Shown here one piece after another: positions 1 through 11,349 of a stretch of 64,000 nucleotides of DNA (its first letter is position 1; the number at the start of each line of letters is the position of its first letter). The notes below the pieces were generated by a model. That model did not search any database and was not told the DNA's origin. It saw only the letters and a list, made by a program, of their open reading frames with translations. Position numbers and translations under genes: made by a program. The stretch is from assembly GCA_038321965.1 (NCBI GenBank), contig JBBQFL010000016.1:12832-76831 (forward strand), written 5' to 3'. The DNA is from Burkholderiales bacterium (GTDB lineage: Bacteria > Pseudomonadota > Gammaproteobacteria > Burkholderiales > Usitatibacteraceae).

Positions 1-8
1 AAGGCCGC

Positions 9-614
9 TTGCGCGCGACGTCGGACGTCAACACGCTGCTGGTCCTGACGCGATTCGATCAAGCAAAGGCGGATAAGATGCGTGAGCCAATGCGTCTGGC
101 CCACGCGACCATTCAGATGAACACCATGTTTTTGCTGGCGTCGGAGTTGCCGACGGCGATAGAGGCGTTTGCAGTGAAGTTTGCCGATATTGCCTCGCGC
201 CACCGGGTTCTCTTTGGCATCGATCCGTTCGCTGCGATTGAGCCGTCGCGTGACGCATTGGTGAGAAGATTGAAACAGGTATTGCTCAACCTGCAGTTGC
301 GGCTGCGCGAACGCTATGTACTGCTTAGCCTGCGAGAAGAGCAGATCGCGCTAGTCATCGCCGACGCAGCCGGCCCCCTGCGATCAAGTGCGGCATCATT
401 GTTGCATCTCGAAGGCCACGCCGCATTGCCGCCAAAAGAAGCACTCGAAAAAGTCGTCAGCGAGATGAAGGACGAAACCCTGTCAAATGTTTTGCACGCG
501 GTCTCGTCTGCTCGCGAAGATAGATTGCTCGAACCCGGCAAGGCACCGCTGACCCTGATCGGGCTGATCGAAATGACCCGTCGCCTCCGCGAACGTGTTG
601 AGCTCGTCCGATAA
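9..614 (+). CDS. Hypothetical protein, probably 5'-truncated at the window edge. The frame is open from position 3.
   Basis: 201-aa ORF, mostly alpha-helical in character, with no motif I can name. It ends 15 nt before the membrane protein of the DUF692 cluster. Confidence 0.3.
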   Translation: MRATSDVNTLLVLTRFDQAKADKMREPMRLAHATIQMNTMFLLASELPTAIEAFAVKFADIASRHRVLFGIDPFAAIEPSRDALVRRLKQVLLNLQLRLRERYVLLSLREEQIALVIADAAGPLRSSAASLLHLEGHAALPPKEALEKVVSEMKDETLSNVLHAVSSAREDRLLEPGKAPLTLIGLIEMTRRLRERVELVR

Positions 615-629
615 ACGCGGGATCACATC

Positions 630-1508
630 GTGAATCCGTTTGAACTCACCGGCTTCAGTTTTCTTGGCTTTTACCTCTTGCTGGGGATCGCTGCCATGCT
701 TGCCATGCGAGCCTGGATCCGGCATCTTGAGACAGCAAACGCGCCACCGACACAAAACATGACCGACCCGTATCTGATCGCGTATCTGCGAAATGGCGAA
801 AACGAGGCGATGCGGGTGGCAACGGTGGCCCTGCTGGATCGAGGGCTGCTGGTCGCTGTTGGCGAGAACCTGACGACGAAGAACAGCAAAGCGTTCGGCG
901 TGGTCCAGCGACCAATCGAGAGCGCGATACTGCAACACTTCGTATCTCCCGGCGAGGGCCATGAAGTATTCAAGAATATCGCCGCAAAGAGCGCTTGTAC
1001 CAGCTATGGGAATTTGCTCAAACAGCAGGGCATGATCGCCGACGCAGGCGTCTATTTGACGCGGCTGTTGCCTGCGTTGGTGATACTCGGTCTATTGGTC
1101 GCGGTGACTTGCACGAAGATCAGCATCGCTTTTTCACAGGGCCGTCACAACGTCGGCTTCCTGGTGGTACTGACCATATTGTTCGGCATCATTGCCATCG
1201 TCATCTGGTGCAGGCGACGCACCGCTCGTGGCGACGAAATGCTGGCGGATTTACGATCCCTGTTCTCGCGCTTGAAAAATCGCGCCAAATCGATGCGGGC
1301 CGGCGGACAAACCAACGAAGCTGCCCTGCTCGCCGCCGTATTCGGTCTGTCGGCGCTGCCAGCGGCGAGTTTTCCTTTCCTCGAAAGGCTGTACCCGGCC
1401 AAAGCGCGCGACGGCAGCGGTTGCGGGTCTACTTCGGATTCATCGTCCTCCTGTAGCAGCGGCAGCAGTTGTGGTGGCGGCTGCGGTGGTGGTGGCTGTG
1501 GCGGCTGA
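630..1508 (+). CDS. Membrane protein with a TIGR04222-like N-terminal domain and a C-terminal Cys/Gly/Ser-rich low-complexity tail
   Basis: N-terminal transmembrane helix, a cytoplasmic domain, then two TM helices. The tail reads ...GSGCGSTSDSSSSCSSGSSCGGGCGGGGCGG* directly before the stop. The stop (TGA 1506-1508) is followed after 1 nt by the DUF692 start. Confidence 0.6.
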   Translation: MNPFELTGFSFLGFYLLLGIAAMLAMRAWIRHLETANAPPTQNMTDPYLIAYLRNGENEAMRVATVALLDRGLLVAVGENLTTKNSKAFGVVQRPIESAILQHFVSPGEGHEVFKNIAAKSACTSYGNLLKQQGMIADAGVYLTRLLPALVILGLLVAVTCTKISIAFSQGRHNVGFLVVLTILFGIIAIVIWCRRRTARGDEMLADLRSLFSRLKNRAKSMRAGGQTNEAALLAAVFGLSALPAASFPFLERLYPAKARDGSGCGSTSDSSSSCSSGSSCGGGCGGGGCGG

Positions 1509-1509
1509 G

Positions 1510-2412
1510 ATGACCACGATGTCAAACAGTACTGATCGGGTCGGTATTGGCTGGCGCGGCGAATTGGCGGCCGGGATATTTTCAAATCTTGACAGCATCG
1601 ACCTGCTGGAACTCGTCGCCGATGATCATTTCCGCGCCACGCCGCGCGAATTGCGGGCACTTCGCACGCTGGCAAGCCACACACCGATCACGCTGCATGG
1701 TGTGGCAATGGGCCTCGCAGGGAGCGAGCCGACGCAGACTCGACGTATCGACAACATGGCGCGCCTGGTCGATGCGCTGCAACCGCAATCGTGGTCTGAG
1801 CACCTCGCGTTCGTTCGCGCCGGGGGCGTCGAAATTGGCCACCTCGCTGCACCGCCACGAACCGCGCAAAACATCGATGCTGCCGTTGCCAATATCGAAT
1901 GCGCAATCCGAATTGTCGGCCGTGCGCCGTTGCTAGAAAATATTGCCACCCTGATCAATCCCCCGGCCAGCAAGCTGGATGAAGCGACGTGGGTAACCGA
2001 CATCATCCTCGGCAGCGGCGCGGAACTATTACTTGATCTGCATAACCTGTACGCAAATGCCGTTAATTTTGGCATCGATCCCACTGACTTGCTGCTGCGA
2101 TTTCCCATCCATCGCGTAAAGGCGGTGCATCTAAGTGGCGGCAAATGGATACCGGAGCCGTCGATGGACGGTGCGTTGCCAACTGCGGAGCCGCGCTTTC
2201 GGCTGCTTGACGATCACGTTCACGACGTTCCTGACGCCGTATTTGATTTGCTGACGCTGTTGGCGCAGCATGCACCTCAGCGGCTTGATGTCATCATCGA
2301 GCGCGACGGAGAGTATCCTGATTTCACCTGTCTGCTGGCGCAACTTGATCGCGCTCGTACGGCGCTGCAGCGGGGCAGAAACGCATCAAACGCATTGCGG
2401 AGGGCAGCATGA
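1510..2412 (+). CDS. DUF692 (UPF0276; MbnB/TglH/HvfB-like multinuclear non-haem-iron oxidase) family protein
   Basis: About 300 aa. The motif ...RVGIGWRGELAAGIF...IDLLELVADDHF... fits the TIM-barrel DUF692 family. Start ATG 1510 is chosen as tightly coupled to the upstream stop; the ORF frame opens at 1471. Confidence 0.6.
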   Translation: MTTMSNSTDRVGIGWRGELAAGIFSNLDSIDLLELVADDHFRATPRELRALRTLASHTPITLHGVAMGLAGSEPTQTRRIDNMARLVDALQPQSWSEHLAFVRAGGVEIGHLAAPPRTAQNIDAAVANIECAIRIVGRAPLLENIATLINPPASKLDEATWVTDIILGSGAELLLDLHNLYANAVNFGIDPTDLLLRFPIHRVKAVHLSGGKWIPEPSMDGALPTAEPRFRLLDDHVHDVPDAVFDLLTLLAQHAPQRLDVIIERDGEYPDFTCLLAQLDRARTALQRGRNASNALRRAA

Positions 2413-2660
2413 ACCCAATTGCACTCGAGACTTTTTTGGCGAAGCTTTATACAGACCCGGCGGCCCGCAATTCTTTCCTTGCCGATCCTGTGCGGGCGGC
2501 GCACGACGCGGGGCTGGAAGATGACGACGTCAGCTCGCTGAACGAAATCGATAAAGTCGGCATGCGCATGGCGGCAGCAAGTTATGTGCACAAACGCGAA
2601 CAGCATAGGCAGCCAAAAATGGCGTTGCATGACACATGGGTGAAGTGGTTCAAGCGTTGA
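2409..2660 (+). CDS. Small (83 aa) Nif11-like helical protein, coupled to DUF692 by an ATGA overlap
   Basis: N-terminus LETFLAKLYTDPAARNSFLADPVRAAHDAGLEDDDVSSL follows the Nif11 / N11P leader pattern (F-L-x-K-x-x-T-D-P ... AGF-like ... DDL). It contains no Cys. Its start overlaps the DUF692 stop by 4 nt. Confidence 0.4.
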   Translation: MNPIALETFLAKLYTDPAARNSFLADPVRAAHDAGLEDDDVSSLNEIDKVGMRMAAASYVHKREQHRQPKMALHDTWVKWFKR

Positions 2661-2828
2661 CCGGGCGTCAGCGTCACCTGCGTAATTTCTGAATTTTAGA
2701 CAGCCATTGCTTCGACGCCGGTCGTGTCCCGGACAGCACGGCAGTGCTCGTCTCGTCACATTTTGATACACGGCGGCACGATATAGTCTGATCAAATTCC
2801 ACTTTCAAATTACATCCGGATCACCCCA

Positions 2829-4832
2829 ATGACAGCACCTAATTATTTGCTACAACGATTGTTGACCATTACGGCCTTGGGTCTCACTCCCCTCGGCGTA
2901 ACCATGGCGCAGGCACCCCTGGTTACGCCACCCGCAGCGTTAGGCTTGGACAACGTCCCCGCCATCTCTCAAAGCGTCGCGACGGAAGTGAGCAAATATA
3001 CAGAATTCAAGCCGACTGGCTTCTCCGGCTGGCATCCGACGCGCATGGAAATGCTGGTCAGTCGCCGCCACAAAAACACCACGCAGGTTTATCGTCTGCC
3101 CTCCCCTGGCGCTGCACTTGAATTGCTCACTGACTATCCTGAGCCGGTGCGCAGTGCTTCATATCAGCCAACGAAGGGTGACTATTTCCTGTTTGGCAAG
3201 GACAGCGGTGGCAACGAAGTATTTCGACTGTACAAACAGTTCGTGACAAAAAACGCTGCAAGTCAATCCGCCGCCGCCATTTCGCCCGATGACAAGCGCA
3301 TACAGTCACTTGCCTGGTCCAGTCGTGGAGATCGCGTGGTGTACACCACCGTGCCGGTCAATCGCAAGGGTTCCAACGACACGGTGCAATCGGAAGTCCA
3401 CATTGCCAGCCCCAACGGCAATCCTGGCAAGGATCTGGTTATCGCCTCACTGCCGGGCGGCGGATGGGGTGAGTTTACGTGGTCGCCGGACGACAAGCAC
3501 CTGGCGCTGCTGGAAGAAGTGTCAGCCAATGAAAGCTACATCTGGCTCATGGATGTCGCGACCGGGACCAAGCGCCGAATCACCGAAAAAGACGGTGCCG
3601 AGCAGGTTGCCTACGGTGGCGTGGAATTCAGCCGCGACAGCAAGGGAATATATACGGTTACCGATCGCGGCAGCGAGTTTCAGCGGCTGACCTATATCGA
3701 TCTGAAAACAAACAAGCAGACAACGCTGACGAAAGACATTCCGTGGGATGTCGATGCGTTTGACTTGTCGCACGACGGCAAACTGATCGCGTTTGTGAGC
3801 AACGAGGACGGTACCGGCAAATTGCACCTCATGGGCACAGCTGATGGGAAAGCGCTGACCACACCGACGCTGCCACTGGGTACACTGGAAAGTGTGCGTT
3901 GGCATCGCGACAGCACAAACCTGGCGATCACCGTGGCATCTGCCAAGGGCCCGGCTGACGTTTATTCGTTCAATGTAAAAACTGGAAAACTTACACGCTG
4001 GACCACCACTGAAGCGGTGGGCGCCGATCCCAGCACATTCGTCGAGCCGGATCTGGTTCGCTGGAAGAGTTTTGATGACCGCACGATTTCCGGTTTCGTC
4101 TATCGCGCCCCTGCTGCGAAGTTCGCCGGCAAGCGCCCGGTATTGATCAATATTCACGGCGGGCCGGAAGGACAATTTCGCCCAGGCTTCATGAGTCGCA
4201 ACAATTATTTCACCAGCGAAATGGGAATCACGGTCCTTTATCCGAATGTGCGTGGCTCCGCAGGTTACGGGAAGTCCTTCCTGAAACTCGACGATGGGCG
4301 GTTGCGTGAAGATTCCGTCAAAGACATCGGCGCGTTGTTTGACTGGATCGCGACGCAGCCGGATATGGATGCCTCCCGGATCATGGTATCGGGCGGCAGC
4401 TATGGCGGGTACATGTCGCTGGCAATCGCCACCCTCTATTCCGACCGGATCGCGGCCTCCATAGATGTCGTCGGCATCTCTAATTTTGTGACCTTCCTGG
4501 AGAACACGGAGAGCTATCGCCGCGATCTGCGGCGCGTGGAATACGGTGACGAACGCGACCCGGAAATGCGCAAATTCCTCGAGACTATTTCGCCGCTTAA
4601 CCGCGCCGCGCAAATCAAGAAGCCGCTGTTCGTGGTGCAAGGAAAAAATGATCCACGCGTGCCCTACACGGAGGCCGAGCAGATCGTTGCGACACTGAAA
4701 AAAGGCGGTACGCCGGTGTGGTACATGGTGGCAGCCGACGAAGGCCACGGCTTCGCCAAGAAAGCCAATTCCGACTATCAGTTTTATGCGACGATTGAAT
4801 TCATGCGCAGGTATTTGCTGGATAAAAAATAG
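2829..4832 (+). CDS. S9 family serine peptidase (prolyl oligopeptidase / acylaminoacyl peptidase-like), secreted
   Basis: Signal peptide, N-terminal beta-propeller-like region, and a C-terminal alpha/beta hydrolase fold with GGSYGGYM nucleophile elbow; the catalytic Asp and His lie downstream. Confidence 0.8.
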   Translation: MTAPNYLLQRLLTITALGLTPLGVTMAQAPLVTPPAALGLDNVPAISQSVATEVSKYTEFKPTGFSGWHPTRMEMLVSRRHKNTTQVYRLPSPGAALELLTDYPEPVRSASYQPTKGDYFLFGKDSGGNEVFRLYKQFVTKNAASQSAAAISPDDKRIQSLAWSSRGDRVVYTTVPVNRKGSNDTVQSEVHIASPNGNPGKDLVIASLPGGGWGEFTWSPDDKHLALLEEVSANESYIWLMDVATGTKRRITEKDGAEQVAYGGVEFSRDSKGIYTVTDRGSEFQRLTYIDLKTNKQTTLTKDIPWDVDAFDLSHDGKLIAFVSNEDGTGKLHLMGTADGKALTTPTLPLGTLESVRWHRDSTNLAITVASAKGPADVYSFNVKTGKLTRWTTTEAVGADPSTFVEPDLVRWKSFDDRTISGFVYRAPAAKFAGKRPVLINIHGGPEGQFRPGFMSRNNYFTSEMGITVLYPNVRGSAGYGKSFLKLDDGRLREDSVKDIGALFDWIATQPDMDASRIMVSGGSYGGYMSLAIATLYSDRIAASIDVVGISNFVTFLENTESYRRDLRRVEYGDERDPEMRKFLETISPLNRAAQIKKPLFVVQGKNDPRVPYTEAEQIVATLKKGGTPVWYMVAADEGHGFAKKANSDYQFYATIEFMRRYLLDKK

Positions 4833-8379: not shown

Positions 8380-8751
8380 CTACTTCACCTCTTCTGCGAC
8401 GCCGCCAGCGCGTTCAACTTTGACGGCTTGAACTGGCACGAAGATCCATAGCAGGATGTACACAAGCACGCCGATGCCGTGCAGCAACGCGGTCAGGACA
8501 AATAAAATCCGCCACGACCAGGAAGGTATGCCGGATTGCACCGCGAGTCCGCCGCAAATTCCACCAATCCACTTGTCAGTCGTAGATAGCCGGTAATCAT
8601 TCAGCGACGACGGTGACTGCATTTGTCTGGGTGGCACTTGGCTGGAAGTGCTGTCGAGCACGCGTTTCTTGGCGAGAACGAATTCCTCCTCGGTCAATAC
8701 ACCCTGTTCGCGCAATGCCTGCAACTTTTGAATTTGGTCCGCCATATCCAT
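8380..8751 (-). CDS. SHOCT + PspC domain membrane protein
   Basis: SHOCT motif QIQKLQALREQGVLTEEEFVLAKKRVL, then the PspC motif DKWIGGICGGLA and a TM helix. Start is taken at MDMADQ (8751), because the longer ORF adds an N-terminal extension that does not look coding. Confidence 0.6.
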   Translation of the reverse strand: MDMADQIQKLQALREQGVLTEEEFVLAKKRVLDSTSSQVPPRQMQSPSSLNDYRLSTTDKWIGGICGGLAVQSGIPSWSWRILFVLTALLHGIGVLVYILLWIFVPVQAVKVERAGGVAEEVK

Positions 8752-9164
8752 TTTCCGTCTCCTGTTTCGATTCTCGGCGCAGTGGTTGCAGCCGATGAAC
8801 AACAGCATAGGCGTTTCCGCTTTGCAGGGGTTGGCGGCAGCGATGGAATGCAGAAACAATCTACCGAAGTTGCGTTTGAGCGGCTGAGTCGGCCGACGAA
8901 ATACAGCGCAAGACTTCGCGAAAATAGAAAACTCAAGCACCAGAGCGCCTCTCCGAGCATAAATAGTTGGAGGTGATCGCCAATAAAGGAGTTTTCTCAC
9001 CGACTTGGCGAATTTCATATCCTGAACGTGGTCGATGTCGCATGAGCGGCCGTTTGTGTTTACCAATCTGAAAACCGGACATGGTTTTGAAACGGTAATT
9101 CAGTTTGTGATCAAGCAGGGGATGCTGGAAGCCAAACCCGAGGCAGTTGTACTAGACTAGCCGC

Positions 9165-9743
9165 ATGAACACGACCCCTCTAGCAACTGACGCCGCCGAC
9201 ACCCGCGCCGCATTTAACCCCTTGATTCGCCCCTACCTGGTCGCGCAAGGCGCATTCATTCTTGCCGTGACCATCGTAGGCATCCCGCTCGCCATCATCT
9301 GGCTTTTAGGCGTCGGCCAATGGTGGGCGCGGCACTATTTCGACAAGCTTGACTGCCATCTGGACGCGAAGAAACTGCGCTATCGCAAAGGCATTCTGGT
9401 GACGGTGGAAAAAACCATCCCGCTGGAAAATATCCAGGACGTAACCTTCATCGAAGGCCCTATCCTGCGTCACTTCCACCTGAGCACCCTCAAGTTCGAG
9501 ACCGCCGGCAGCGGCGCCGGGCAAGCCAACGATATGCACCTCACCGGCATCATCGACGCGCACGATTTCCGCAACCGGATTCTGGAGGCGCGCGACGCGC
9601 TCAAGCAGCAGGGGCGCGACCCGCACGCCGCTGCGGCATCGTCAAACTCGGAGAGCGAGTTCAGGGTTGCGCAGTTGGCGGCGCTACATGGGATAGAGCG
9701 CAGGTTGGATGAGGCGGTGGCGTTGTTGAAGGAGCGCAAGTAG
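9165..9743 (+). CDS. Bacterial PH (bPH_2/YdbS-like) domain membrane protein
   Basis: TM hairpin followed by a PH-like domain (...LRYRKGILVTVEKTIPLENIQDVTFIEGPILRHFHLSTLKFETAG...). Confidence 0.6.
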   Translation: MNTTPLATDAADTRAAFNPLIRPYLVAQGAFILAVTIVGIPLAIIWLLGVGQWWARHYFDKLDCHLDAKKLRYRKGILVTVEKTIPLENIQDVTFIEGPILRHFHLSTLKFETAGSGAGQANDMHLTGIIDAHDFRNRILEARDALKQQGRDPHAAAASSNSESEFRVAQLAALHGIERRLDEAVALLKERK

Positions 9744-10085
9744 CGGGATTGTCGGACGGTTTCAATGCAGATTGAGATTCGGCGAAATGCGACATGCACC
9801 GTTGCCAAAAATGGAAACTCGTTCATCCACGCGGCGTTCAAGGCAAAAAGGCTTCGAAATGTCCGCCGAATGGCGATCTACGTAAATTGGACGAAGTAAC
9901 AACGCAATGCATGACTACGCAATCTCATTCGAACGAAATTAATTGACGCTGCCTCTCATTTGCCCCGCGCGTCGCCATTACGCGATGCAGCTCGTGCACG
10001 ATCTCCGCGCCCGCCTCATTGCGCGCCGCTGGTTACACTGCAACAACTGTAGAATTCAGGCTGACTGACTTAACCGCGATCCGAT

Positions 10086-10559
10086 ATGTCCATTTACACA
10101 CTTGGCTATGAAGGCCTCGATATTGCAGGCTTCATCGCTCGACTCCAGCAAGTTGGCATAAGGACAATTGTTGACGTCCGCCAGCTTCCGTTGTCCCGAA
10201 AGCGTGGTTTCTCCAAGAAATCTTTTTCAGAAGCCCTGGCGCAGGCAGGCATCGCGTATGTTCACATGCCGACGCTTGGCTGCCCAAAAGCGATTCGGGA
10301 TTCGTATAAGCAAGATCAGGACTGGAGGCTGTACTCAGACGCCTTCCTGGCGTACCTTCAAACTCAGGGAGCCGGTGTGCGCGAACTGGCAAAGATTTCG
10401 CGTGCGACAACAGCGTGTCTTGTTTGCTTCGAAGCAGATTTCAATTTCTGCCACAGAACGTATGTTGCCCGCGCGACACGGCGATTCGGTGCTCCCGCCG
10501 TTCAGCACATCACGGCGCAAACAGTGGTAGCTGATTTGCCGCTGCGGGTGGCTGCTTAG
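10086..10559 (+). CDS. DUF488 family protein
   Basis: MSIYTLGYEGLDIAGFIARLQQVGIRTIVDVRQLPLSRKRGFSK... matches DUF488. The C-terminal roughly 25 aa extend past the usual family length and overlap the convergent 279-aa ORF by 50 nt. Confidence 0.65.
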   Translation: MSIYTLGYEGLDIAGFIARLQQVGIRTIVDVRQLPLSRKRGFSKKSFSEALAQAGIAYVHMPTLGCPKAIRDSYKQDQDWRLYSDAFLAYLQTQGAGVRELAKISRATTACLVCFEADFNFCHRTYVARATRRFGAPAVQHITAQTVVADLPLRVAA

Positions 10560-11349
10560 GCGGATAAATCAGCGAAACAATAAGCCACTGATTGGGAAAG
10601 CGATGGATCGTCCCGAGCATAAGCAAAAGGTCTTTCGAAGGTAGTTCTTGTTCGAGCTTTTGCCGGAACGGTGCTACCCAACCAGTACCGTGCCTACTGT
10701 GGACTTTCCAGAAAAGTGCACCAACTTCCCAGTCAACCAGCTTGTGCCGAAACTCGTGTTTCTCGCCGTTCACGTCGCATTCATACCGGTAGTGAAAGTC
10801 GTACGGGATTTTCCTCAGTAGCTTGAGGGTCCTGGCTTCCTCGTTCTCGTCGAACAAGCCCACTTGCATTTGCATTTGAAGCAGCTTGGCTTTTTCTTCC
10901 TCCGTCCAATCAGGAGCGCTAGTCTTCTTGATTTCCAACTCCACGATCCGCGAAGGGCGCAACAACGCGAGCGTGTGCCCCTTGCTTGTTCGATCCTGCT
11001 CGACGGAAGCGAAGTCAGAATAAACTGGAATCATCGCGAGCCACTGCCTGCGTTCGCGCCACCCCGCCTCGCCACTTGGCAAGGCCGACTCATCGCAGTT
11101 GATCGTATCGACGTAGATCTTGTGACTCTCGGGCCGATGATCGTTCCCGGCTTTCTCAATCCTGGCGGTGATCCATTGCCACTTCTTGAACTGCTGCTCG
11201 TCGCCAACAAGTCGAAACGGCATTGGGTAAATTCGGATCAGCTTTCCAGATTCGTCCATCCCCGCGACACAAGAAGTCTCGGTGTACTTCGCGCTTGGCG
11301 ATGGGTACGTCTTGCAAAGAATCAGAATTCGCTCGATCTTTGAAATCAC
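10510..11349 (-). CDS. Hypothetical protein (279 aa) at the left edge of the low-GC block
   Basis: Long ORF with no motif I recognise. It is acidic and Trp-rich. It lies downstream of the higB / HTH-ImmA / beta cassette after a 277-bp gap. Confidence 0.4.
   Translation of the reverse strand: MISKIERILILCKTYPSPSAKYTETSCVAGMDESGKLIRIYPMPFRLVGDEQQFKKWQWITARIEKAGNDHRPESHKIYVDTINCDESALPSGEAGWRERRQWLAMIPVYSDFASVEQDRTSKGHTLALLRPSRIVELEIKKTSAPDWTEEEKAKLLQMQMQVGLFDENEEARTLKLLRKIPYDFHYRYECDVNGEKHEFRHKLVDWEVGALFWKVHSRHGTGWVAPFRQKLEQELPSKDLLLMLGTIHRFPNQWLIVSLIYPPKQPPAAANQLPLFAP

Follow-up and report, generated by a model that had tools for sequence, protein, structure and literature searches.

The 64,000-nucleotide (nt) stretch of DNA analysed in this work (hereafter the window) comes from Burkholderiales bacterium, family Usitatibacteraceae (assembly GCA_038321965.1, contig JBBQFL010000016.1, positions 12,832-76,831, forward strand), and opens with a four-gene operon, whose products are a protein of nucleotidyltransferase fold, a TIGR04222 membrane protein, an iron-dependent oxidase of the MNIO (DUF692) class, and a protein of 83 amino acids (aa). 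For the neighbouring MNIO, the best substrate candidate is the Cys-rich tail of the TIGR04222 protein, as proposed in an earlier note made from the sequence alone. We infer which substrate is modified, by what chemistry, in which topology, and with what metal function: the MNIO and its 83-aa partner would modify this tail, yielding a membrane-anchored metal-binding product. We give this model as a whole about an even chance of being right; the substrate assignment within it is held more firmly, and the chemistry and physiological role less firmly.

In the window, the 3' part of the nucleotidyltransferase-fold gene (3..614, + strand; 203 codons of a protein of ~244 aa, assigned by family profile and Pfam) is followed by the genes of the TIGR04222 protein (630..1508, +; assigned by NCBIfam model and AlphaFold2 (AF2)), the MNIO (1510..2412, +; 300 aa, Pfam PF05114), and the 83-aa protein (2409..2660, +). 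From 5' to 3', the first two gaps between them measure 15 nt and 1 nt, and the last two genes overlap by 4 nt, which leaves no space for an additional open reading frame (ORF). The TIGR04222 ORF begins with GTG, encodes 292 aa, and ends with TGA at 1506-1508; the MNIO ATG lies at 1510, one nucleotide past this stop, and the MNIO TGA overlaps the ATG of the 83-aa ORF as ATGA (2409-2412). The earlier note had described these three genes as coupled, and its coordinates, the tail, the 1-nt spacing, and the ATGA overlap were all verified in the sequence. Two other MNIO starts are possible, ATG at 1519 (the start called in the relative L002) and GTG at 1471, and the TIGR04222 and MNIO genes are tightly coupled under any of these choices. 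This ambiguity falls within 1471-1519, where GGNGG-rich codons of the tail occupy the position at which an MNIO ribosome-binding site would be expected. A promoter and terminator scan of 2300-3000 found nothing.

The TIGR04222 assignment, which the earlier note had made in the form of a likeness, is borne out by a match of 92.2 bits against a cutoff of 43 over residues 15-244 (NCBIfam), and 1370 homologues were found at E<=1e-3. The protein ends in a disordered Cys/Gly/Ser tail (residues 257-292; 1398..1505, +), the candidate core for MNIO modification, which reads ...GSGCGSTSDSSSSCSSGSSCGGGCGGGGCGG with CGGGCGGGGCGG as its last twelve residues, carries five cysteines (Cys265, 275, 281, 285, and 290), and falls below 50 in pLDDT, the AF2 per-residue score, throughout. 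Among 117 aligned homologues, the tail is 20-50 residues long and consists of 37% Gly, 32% Ser, and 14% Cys; 114 of the 117 tails hold 4-7 Cys, spaced mainly 4-6 apart. The residue after a tail Cys (n=586) is Gly in 455 cases and Ser in 128, which together account for 583/586 (99.5%). The terminal dodecamer CGGGCGGGGCGG or CSGGCGGGGCGG is present in 74/117 homologues, and the last 12 residues form the best-conserved block of the protein (0.92-0.98). The Cys/Gly/Ser tail is kept in 117 homologues down to ~44% identity of the body, and is under selection. We take the tail as the probable substrate because no other Cys-rich sequence occurs in the cassette, which has no room for another ORF.

By exact-protein look-ups and tblastn, the cassette was recovered in nine independent lineages (the window with L001-L003; L004; L005/6; L007/8; L009; L010/11; L012-14; L015/16; L017/18); a contig scan of genomes with the MNIO as query gave one locus only, L001, from a Betaproteobacteria metagenome-assembled genome. 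The gene order is constant, namely a protein of ~241-276 aa, TIGR04222, MNIO, and a small protein of 83-98 aa, with gaps of a few nucleotides or overlaps. All four genes were seen in 8/8 lineages with readable upstream sequence (L004 ends before the first gene), the MNIO gene adjoins the TIGR04222 gene in 9/9, and the small-protein gene is directly 3' of the MNIO gene in all; in L009 this small ORF is uncalled in the annotation but present in the sequence. Identity of the TIGR04222 protein among the lineages drops to ~41% (tblastn), and the flanking genes are unlike in every lineage. With the tail kept in 117 homologues and the order recurring in nine lineages, the arrangement exceeds chance, and the pairing of a Cys tail with a neighbouring DUF692 gene that the earlier note had drawn from one locus recurs in these nine lineages.

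A tail that is left unmodified, as a low-complexity metal- or Fe-S-binding appendage from the DUF2207/TIGR04222 superfamily, while the MNIO acts elsewhere, would fit with the general occurrence of Gly-rich tails in this superfamily (Pfam DUF2207_C is matched by 50/117 relatives) and with the many TIGR04222 proteins that occur without an MNIO. However, an MNIO adjoins in all nine lineages of this subfamily, the cassette offers no other plausible substrate, and the Cys-Gly/Ser context matches the site preference of MNIOs, so that we regard this alternative as very unlikely. Through the DUF2207_C matches, the membrane core of TIGR04222 is linked with the DUF2207 family; known members of that family likewise end in Gly-rich tails, without Cys.

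The enzyme matches Pfam MbnB_TglH_ChrH (PF05114, formerly DUF692) at 204.9 bits and 1.8e-60 (cutoff 25), over profile positions 2-262 of 263; the earlier note had named such a search as the check on its DUF692 call, which stands. No signal peptide was found in the MNIO. The best NCBIfam matches are BufB (169.5 bits, cutoff 310) and HvfB (121.7, cutoff 360), and the scores for other MNIO equivalogs are also below cutoff (ApyH 83.1/400, ChrH 51.8/600, MbnB 21/325). In the PDB, it matches 3bww (3.8e-17) and TglH (8hci_D, 7e-10). The residues H63, E97, H98, E143, D176, H178, N179, H207, D234, D235, H236, H238, and E264 are invariant in ten orthologues and align with the same motifs in 3bww; judged by this alignment, the MNIO retains every invariant candidate metal ligand.

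5-Thiooxazoles are the products of MNIOs of the bufferin, HvfB, and FonB type, and FonB favours target Cys that precede a small residue (PMC12668002). Thiooxazole chemistry is favoured for the window MNIO because its nearest curated families, BufB and HvfB, are Cys-to-thiooxazole enzymes, and the strict Cys-Gly/Ser context of the tail matches the site preference seen with FonB. The bufferin and captophorin systems (BufA-BufB-BufC, HvfA-HvfB-HvfC, FonABC) combine an MNIO with a DUF2063-RRE protein (PME-type 1) and produce secreted copper-binding peptides. The cassette resembles them in its MNIO, nearest to BufB/HvfB, in multiple Cys placed before a small residue, and in a cytoplasmic enzyme whose product is possibly periplasmic. 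Unlike them, it has as putative substrate a tail on a polytopic membrane protein of 292 aa rather than a peptide precursor with a Sec signal, its partner has 83 aa and neither an RRE nor a Pfam DUF2063 match (PME-type 1 proteins total ~250-260 aa), no DoxX gene is present, and the motif is (S/G)C(G/S) instead of EGKCG. The cassette proteins gave no match to the DUF2282, Buf_6/12Cys, or EGKCG-repeat precursor models. TglHI and MbnBC also differ, in that TglI and MbnC have ~180-270 aa including an RRE-like peptide-binding domain and the substrates are small soluble peptides; TglH excises the Cys beta-carbon, and MbnB makes an oxazolone/thioamide.

The absence of a DUF2063 gene, on which the earlier note had laid weight, was confirmed for the cassette proteins (Pfam, E<=0.1), 20 further window ORFs, and the downstream S9 peptidase gene; no DUF2063, DoxX, or second MNIO was found among the 25 window ORFs scanned (4 of the cassette and 21 others). 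The further step to an enzyme working without the canonical partner did not survive, as the 83-aa protein stands in the partner position, is fused to the MNIO in L010/L011, and has relatives listed as PME-type 2. In these two loci (L010:5830-7053, L011:5830-7053), one 407-aa ORF encodes both the MNIO and the small protein, as seen in nine contigs, with the small protein in frame at the MNIO C-terminus via a ~25-aa Cys/Pro/Ala linker. According to its position after the MNIO, this fusion, and the PME-type 2 listing of its relatives, the small protein is most likely a minimal PME-type 2 partner of the MNIO, without an RRE.

A profile search with the small protein gave 715 relatives; among the 120 matches listed, nearly all have ~83-98 aa, and almost every one that carries a name is annotated 'hypothetical'. 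The model NF038399 ('Os1348 family NHLP clan') scores 26.5 bits on the window protein, under its cutoff of 40, and is matched at E<=0.01 by 114/116 relatives; Pfam LigA is matched by 95/116, TIGR04509 by 75/116, and the Nif11 model TIGR03798 by 1/116, and DUF2063 by none of the 116 (E<=1). By the matches of its relatives the small protein thus probably belongs to the NHLP/LigA clan, and the 'Nif11-like' protein of the earlier note is not a Nif11 member proper. In the AF2 model (pLDDT 83.6, >90 for residues 1-60), a five-helix domain is followed by a low-confidence C-terminal helix. Foldseek matches it to Os1348 (6lk7) with a probability of 0.98-1.00, and the modelled fold resembles Os1348/PosA, SonA, and possibly the TglI partner. 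An RRE-type winged-helix domain was not found: the small protein is all-helical and strand-free in AF2, and the cassette proteins are without an RRE. The invariant positions all lie within the AF2-helical region H3-66. The last ~20 residues are variable, with a net charge of +4.9, and rich in Arg, Leu, Lys, and Trp, and we suggest, as a weak inference, that this basic C-terminus may be a membrane-binding amphipathic helix. In LigAB/gallate dioxygenase, a small LigA subunit, or a fused LigA domain, caps a non-haem iron dioxygenase; the catalytic folds differ (LigB versus a TIM-barrel in the MNIO), and the analogy is architectural only.

The clan membership also allows the 83-aa protein to be read as a precursor of a RiPP (a peptide made by the ribosome and modified after translation), with a ~65-aa leader and a ~15-20-aa core, which would be the true or a second MNIO substrate, the TIGR04222 protein serving in export, anchoring, or immunity. 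The protein Os1348 is identical with PosA, a precursor of NHLP type with a crystal structure, 6LK7 (PMC7726476), and an MNIO domain, that of the MNIO-nitroreductase fusion PflD, has been proven to modify the PosA relative PflA (PMC12636437); the 83-aa protein shares with PflA/PosA the Os1348-type helical fold, a family-level sequence signal, and an adjacent MNIO. Unlike PosA, in which a conserved core is modified (QQQQ-ARMD, Phe-Asp), it has no conserved core: its C-terminal ~15-20 residues are the least conserved and hold no invariant residue, no double-Gly (GG) cleavage motif was found in it, and a Cys lies within the last 25 residues in only 6/116 relatives. Its gene follows that of the enzyme, which is the typical partner position, and is fused to it in one lineage. 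A precursor role would moreover leave the conserved Cys-Gly tail unexplained, and we consider it distinctly unlikely.

In another reading, the small protein would be a detached NHLP-type leader that binds and activates the MNIO in trans, as a leader in cis would, with the core located on the membrane protein; the precursor would then be split by nature, and the L010 fusion a natural 'leader-fused enzyme'. The partner data and the NHLP-clan membership fit both readings, and the lack of an RRE in the small protein or any other cassette protein speaks for the leader in trans; on balance we hold it to be unlikely.

The minimal-partner reading agrees with previous work. A survey by Antoine, Leprevost et al. 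(Microb Genom 2025, PMC12452194) had put forward TIGR04222 proteins as substrates of MNIOs without DUF2063; there, 40% of the Cys proteins that are encoded before MNIO genes and lack a signal peptide are TIGR04222 proteins, the TIGR04222-MNIO clusters are given as having no DUF2063 genes, and at least 10% of them encode PME-type 2 partners, which follow the MNIO, lack the DUF2063 signature, and are HHpred-like to NGO1945 and TglI. Its tables list the TIGR04222 proteins MBL0124460 and MBL8524468 (73% and 67% identical to that of the window), enter the MNIOs MBL0124461 and MBL8524467 twice, as 'MNIO associated with TIGR04222' and as 'PME-type 2', and give the small proteins MBL0124462.1 and MBL8524466.1 in the sheet 'Fig6A PME-type 2'; the latter two (P0137 and P0173) are 59% and 54% identical to the small protein of the window. 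The small protein agrees with the PME-type 2 class of the survey in that it follows the MNIO, is without DUF2063, and has relatives in the authors' cluster. The published clusters share with the cassette the three families, the gene order, the hypothesis of a Cys segment modified by the MNIO, and the lack of DUF2063. The earlier note therefore overstated its novelty: this source already has a tethered substrate, an absent DUF2063, and the partner as an open question, the tethered-tail idea had been predicted in print, and the small protein is the 'missing partner'. By contrast, the upstream nucleotidyltransferase-fold gene is unmentioned in the survey's main text, with the neighbouring accessions not in the tables examined, and this text and these tables do not mention that short PME-type 2 proteins fall in the NHLP/LigA clan, an MNIO-partner fusion, or the chemistry. 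Relative to that material, the linked nucleotidyltransferase-fold gene, the NHLP/LigA-clan partner with its possible similarity to TglI, and the MNIO-partner fusion appear to be new.

The first gene of the cassette is truncated by the window edge: the ORF at 9-614 corresponds to the C-terminal 203 aa of a ~244-aa protein, whose first ~41 aa and GS motif lie outside the window, and this fragment alone gave no Pfam or NCBIfam match. Full-length orthologues are present in L001, L002, L005, L007, L009, L010, L012, L015, and L017, in every case 4-19 nt upstream of the TIGR04222 gene, and the family comprises 821 representatives (50% identity) at E<=1e-3. Its profile matches AadA ANT(3'')(9) (7uy4, E=5.7e-7) over the N-terminal domain, and the relatives match Pfam Polbeta (67/71) and NTP_transf_2 (63/71). 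In the motif GSxAEGxxRxxSD[VIL]N, GS is invariant and the second catalytic Asp is replaced by Asn (D-h-N) in 107/111 relatives, so that the [DE]x[DE] metal pair expected of nucleotidyltransferases alongside the hG[GS] motif is represented by a D-h-N pair. By sequence, the upstream protein has a nucleotidyltransferase fold with an altered active site. Several candidate domain fusions of this family were rejected: P0249, P0380, P0265, and P0367 are apparent over-extended gene calls, and the 356-aa call P0369 looks like read-through into frameshifted TIGR04222-like sequence (...YFIAYLRGGKPEALRVATIALIDRG...). P0369, from a high-GC organism, places the nucleotidyltransferase-like and TIGR04222 genes side by side in a distant lineage too.

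The earlier note had suggested that this ORF fills the partner role; it could also be a second modifying enzyme, for example nucleotidylating the tail Ser, or hold the tail for the MNIO. Its gene is directly upstream in every lineage readable there, it is better conserved (~52-70% identity) than the TIGR04222 protein (41-62%, tblastn), and its N-terminal domain is AadA-like. However, it shows no similarity to DUF2063, MbnC, or RRE proteins, the change of the second catalytic Asp to Asn, seen in 107/111 relatives, argues against ordinary nucleotidyl transfer, and the partner role is already fitted by the small protein; a partner or second-enzyme role is thus quite improbable.

The AF2 model of the TIGR04222 protein (pLDDT 73.6; predicted template modelling score, pTM, 0.67) has three long transmembrane helices, a soluble alpha/beta domain, a basic helix after the third transmembrane helix, and the disordered tail. 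Predicted transmembrane helix 1 (residues 9-36; 654..737, +) is an AF2 helix with a Kyte-Doolittle peak of ~2.0, and its N-terminal flank holds no Lys or Arg. The soluble domain (residues 47-132; 768..1025, +), probably cytoplasmic, comprises in AF2 the elements H47-55, H57-70, E74-77, E80-83, H88-91, H95-103, H110-115, and H117-132, and carries a conserved DPYLIAYLRxGxxEALRVATVALLDRGLL block and Cys123, which is kept in 110/117 relatives; no informative PDB or Pfam match was found for this domain. Helices 2 and 3, also predicted to be transmembrane (residues 139-169 and 176-193; 1044..1208, +; AF2, Kyte-Doolittle peaks 2.3 and 2.9), are connected by a conserved GRHN loop and followed by a strongly basic segment (residues 194-228; 1209..1313, +; AF2 helix 199-219) with a mean of 9.0 Lys+Arg per 35 residues in the 117 homologues, which we assign to the cytoplasm because of the positive-inside rule. 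An uncharged hydrophobic block, EAALLAAVFGLSALPAASFPFL (residues 229-250; 1314..1379, +), then precedes the tail; it is the most conserved block outside the tail, with a Kyte-Doolittle peak of 1.86, Lys+Arg of 0.07, and a top-residue fraction of 0.89 for 231-240, and AF2 places only two short helices here, at 229-238 and 249-254. This block would be either a fourth transmembrane segment or a 'leader-like' recognition element before the tail.

In the proposed mechanism, the cytoplasmic MNIO would form a complex with the 83-aa helical protein, a putative minimal partner akin to the N-domain of DUF2063 proteins and to NHLP proteins, whose basic C-terminus may keep the enzyme at the membrane, and the complex would act in the cytoplasm on the disordered C-terminal tail, with residues 229-250 serving as the recognition element. 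The five Cys-Gly/Cys-Ser sites would each be oxidised by four electrons to 5-thiooxazoles or, alternatively, to the isomeric oxazolone/thioamide. Residues 229-250 could then possibly act as a late-inserting fourth transmembrane segment that moves the modified tail to the periplasm, and the product would be a membrane-anchored thiooxazole array chelating copper or another soft metal. The nucleotidyltransferase-like protein may be a non-catalytic scaffold or chaperone. If this holds, MNIOs modify the tail of an integral membrane protein besides small secreted peptides, bacteria gain a membrane-anchored, copper-binding thiooxazole array, and an MNIO can work with an 83-aa partner without the usual RRE peptide-recognition domain. 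The question itself was already open in the literature, and the locus provides a compact, well-conserved four-gene test case from Betaproteobacteria.

Several points weigh against this mechanism. TIGR04222-MNIO pairs are known from prediction only, and, according to the published survey, a third of the TIGR04222-carrying genomes are without an MNIO and a quarter of the TIGR04222 proteins are without a C-proximal Cys (PMC12452194). The MNIO scores far under the BufB and HvfB equivalog cutoffs, so its chemistry could differ, and in the sampled lineage neighbourhoods no copper-related gene recurs beside the cassette. In the predicted topology, the side on which the tail lies hinges on residues 229-250; if these span the membrane, the tail would be periplasmic and the modification would have to precede insertion. 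The small protein is nearest by sequence to NHLP-type precursor leaders and so may be a substrate, and the amphipathicity of its C-terminus is weak (hydrophobic moment z = 0.76 versus shuffles).

A more elaborate reading combines the free or MNIO-fused small protein, as an NHLP-type leader, with the membrane-protein tail, as core, into one split RiPP-like precursor, with the D-x-N nucleotidyltransferase-fold protein as an obligatory assembly factor. We put it forward tentatively, as unlikely. If true, a single fold would be shared by the partner N-domains of DUF2063 type, NHLP leaders, and LigA caps and serve as both substrate handle and enzyme subunit, and MNIO chemistry would reach beyond peptides to proteins integral to the membrane.

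A defence or toxin-antitoxin-like module, made of an MNT-type nucleotidyltransferase and a membrane effector, was also considered, as the nucleotidyltransferase domain weakly matches the PADLOC candidates PDC-S09 and PDC-M05A, L010 adjoins SMODS/SLATT genes, and L009 adjoins mobile-element genes. The MNIO and the small protein gave no PADLOC match, and that of the TIGR04222 protein was insignificant (E=0.04). The nucleotidyltransferase matches are confined to the generic motif at residues 8-64, and the other seven lineages are without a defence context; this extremely improbable reading was rejected, as PADLOC gave generic nucleotidyltransferase-domain matches only.

The neighbourhoods of the cassette hold various other genes. 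SMODS and SLATT_4 genes lie in L010:1-2187, helix-turn-helix, primase, and VapE-like mobile-element genes in L009:625-4284 and 9312-10888, and a DsbD-thioredoxin fusion with MsrB and MsrA in L015:7237-10267. A 661-aa protein with a CHASE2 sensor and an adenylate/guanylate cyclase is encoded directly before the nucleotidyltransferase-like gene in L002:864-2849 and L001:9-914, and is absent from the more distant lineages. In the window, an S9 prolyl-oligopeptidase-family protein (2829-4832, +; 667 aa), with a beta-propeller, a Peptidase_S9 domain, and an N-terminus resembling a Sec signal peptide, is encoded 168 nt past the cassette, a position that is kept only in the close relatives L002 and L003. 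If periplasmic, this peptidase could in principle free the modified tail, with proximity as the sole link. The S9 peptidase and the CHASE2-cyclase were rejected as core cassette genes, as they are conserved only within the close relatives L001-L003. Farther downstream, the window encodes unrelated proteins, including PspC+SHOCT (8380-9066, -), DUF488 (10086-10559, +), and 'Beta protein' PF14350 (11627-12769, -).

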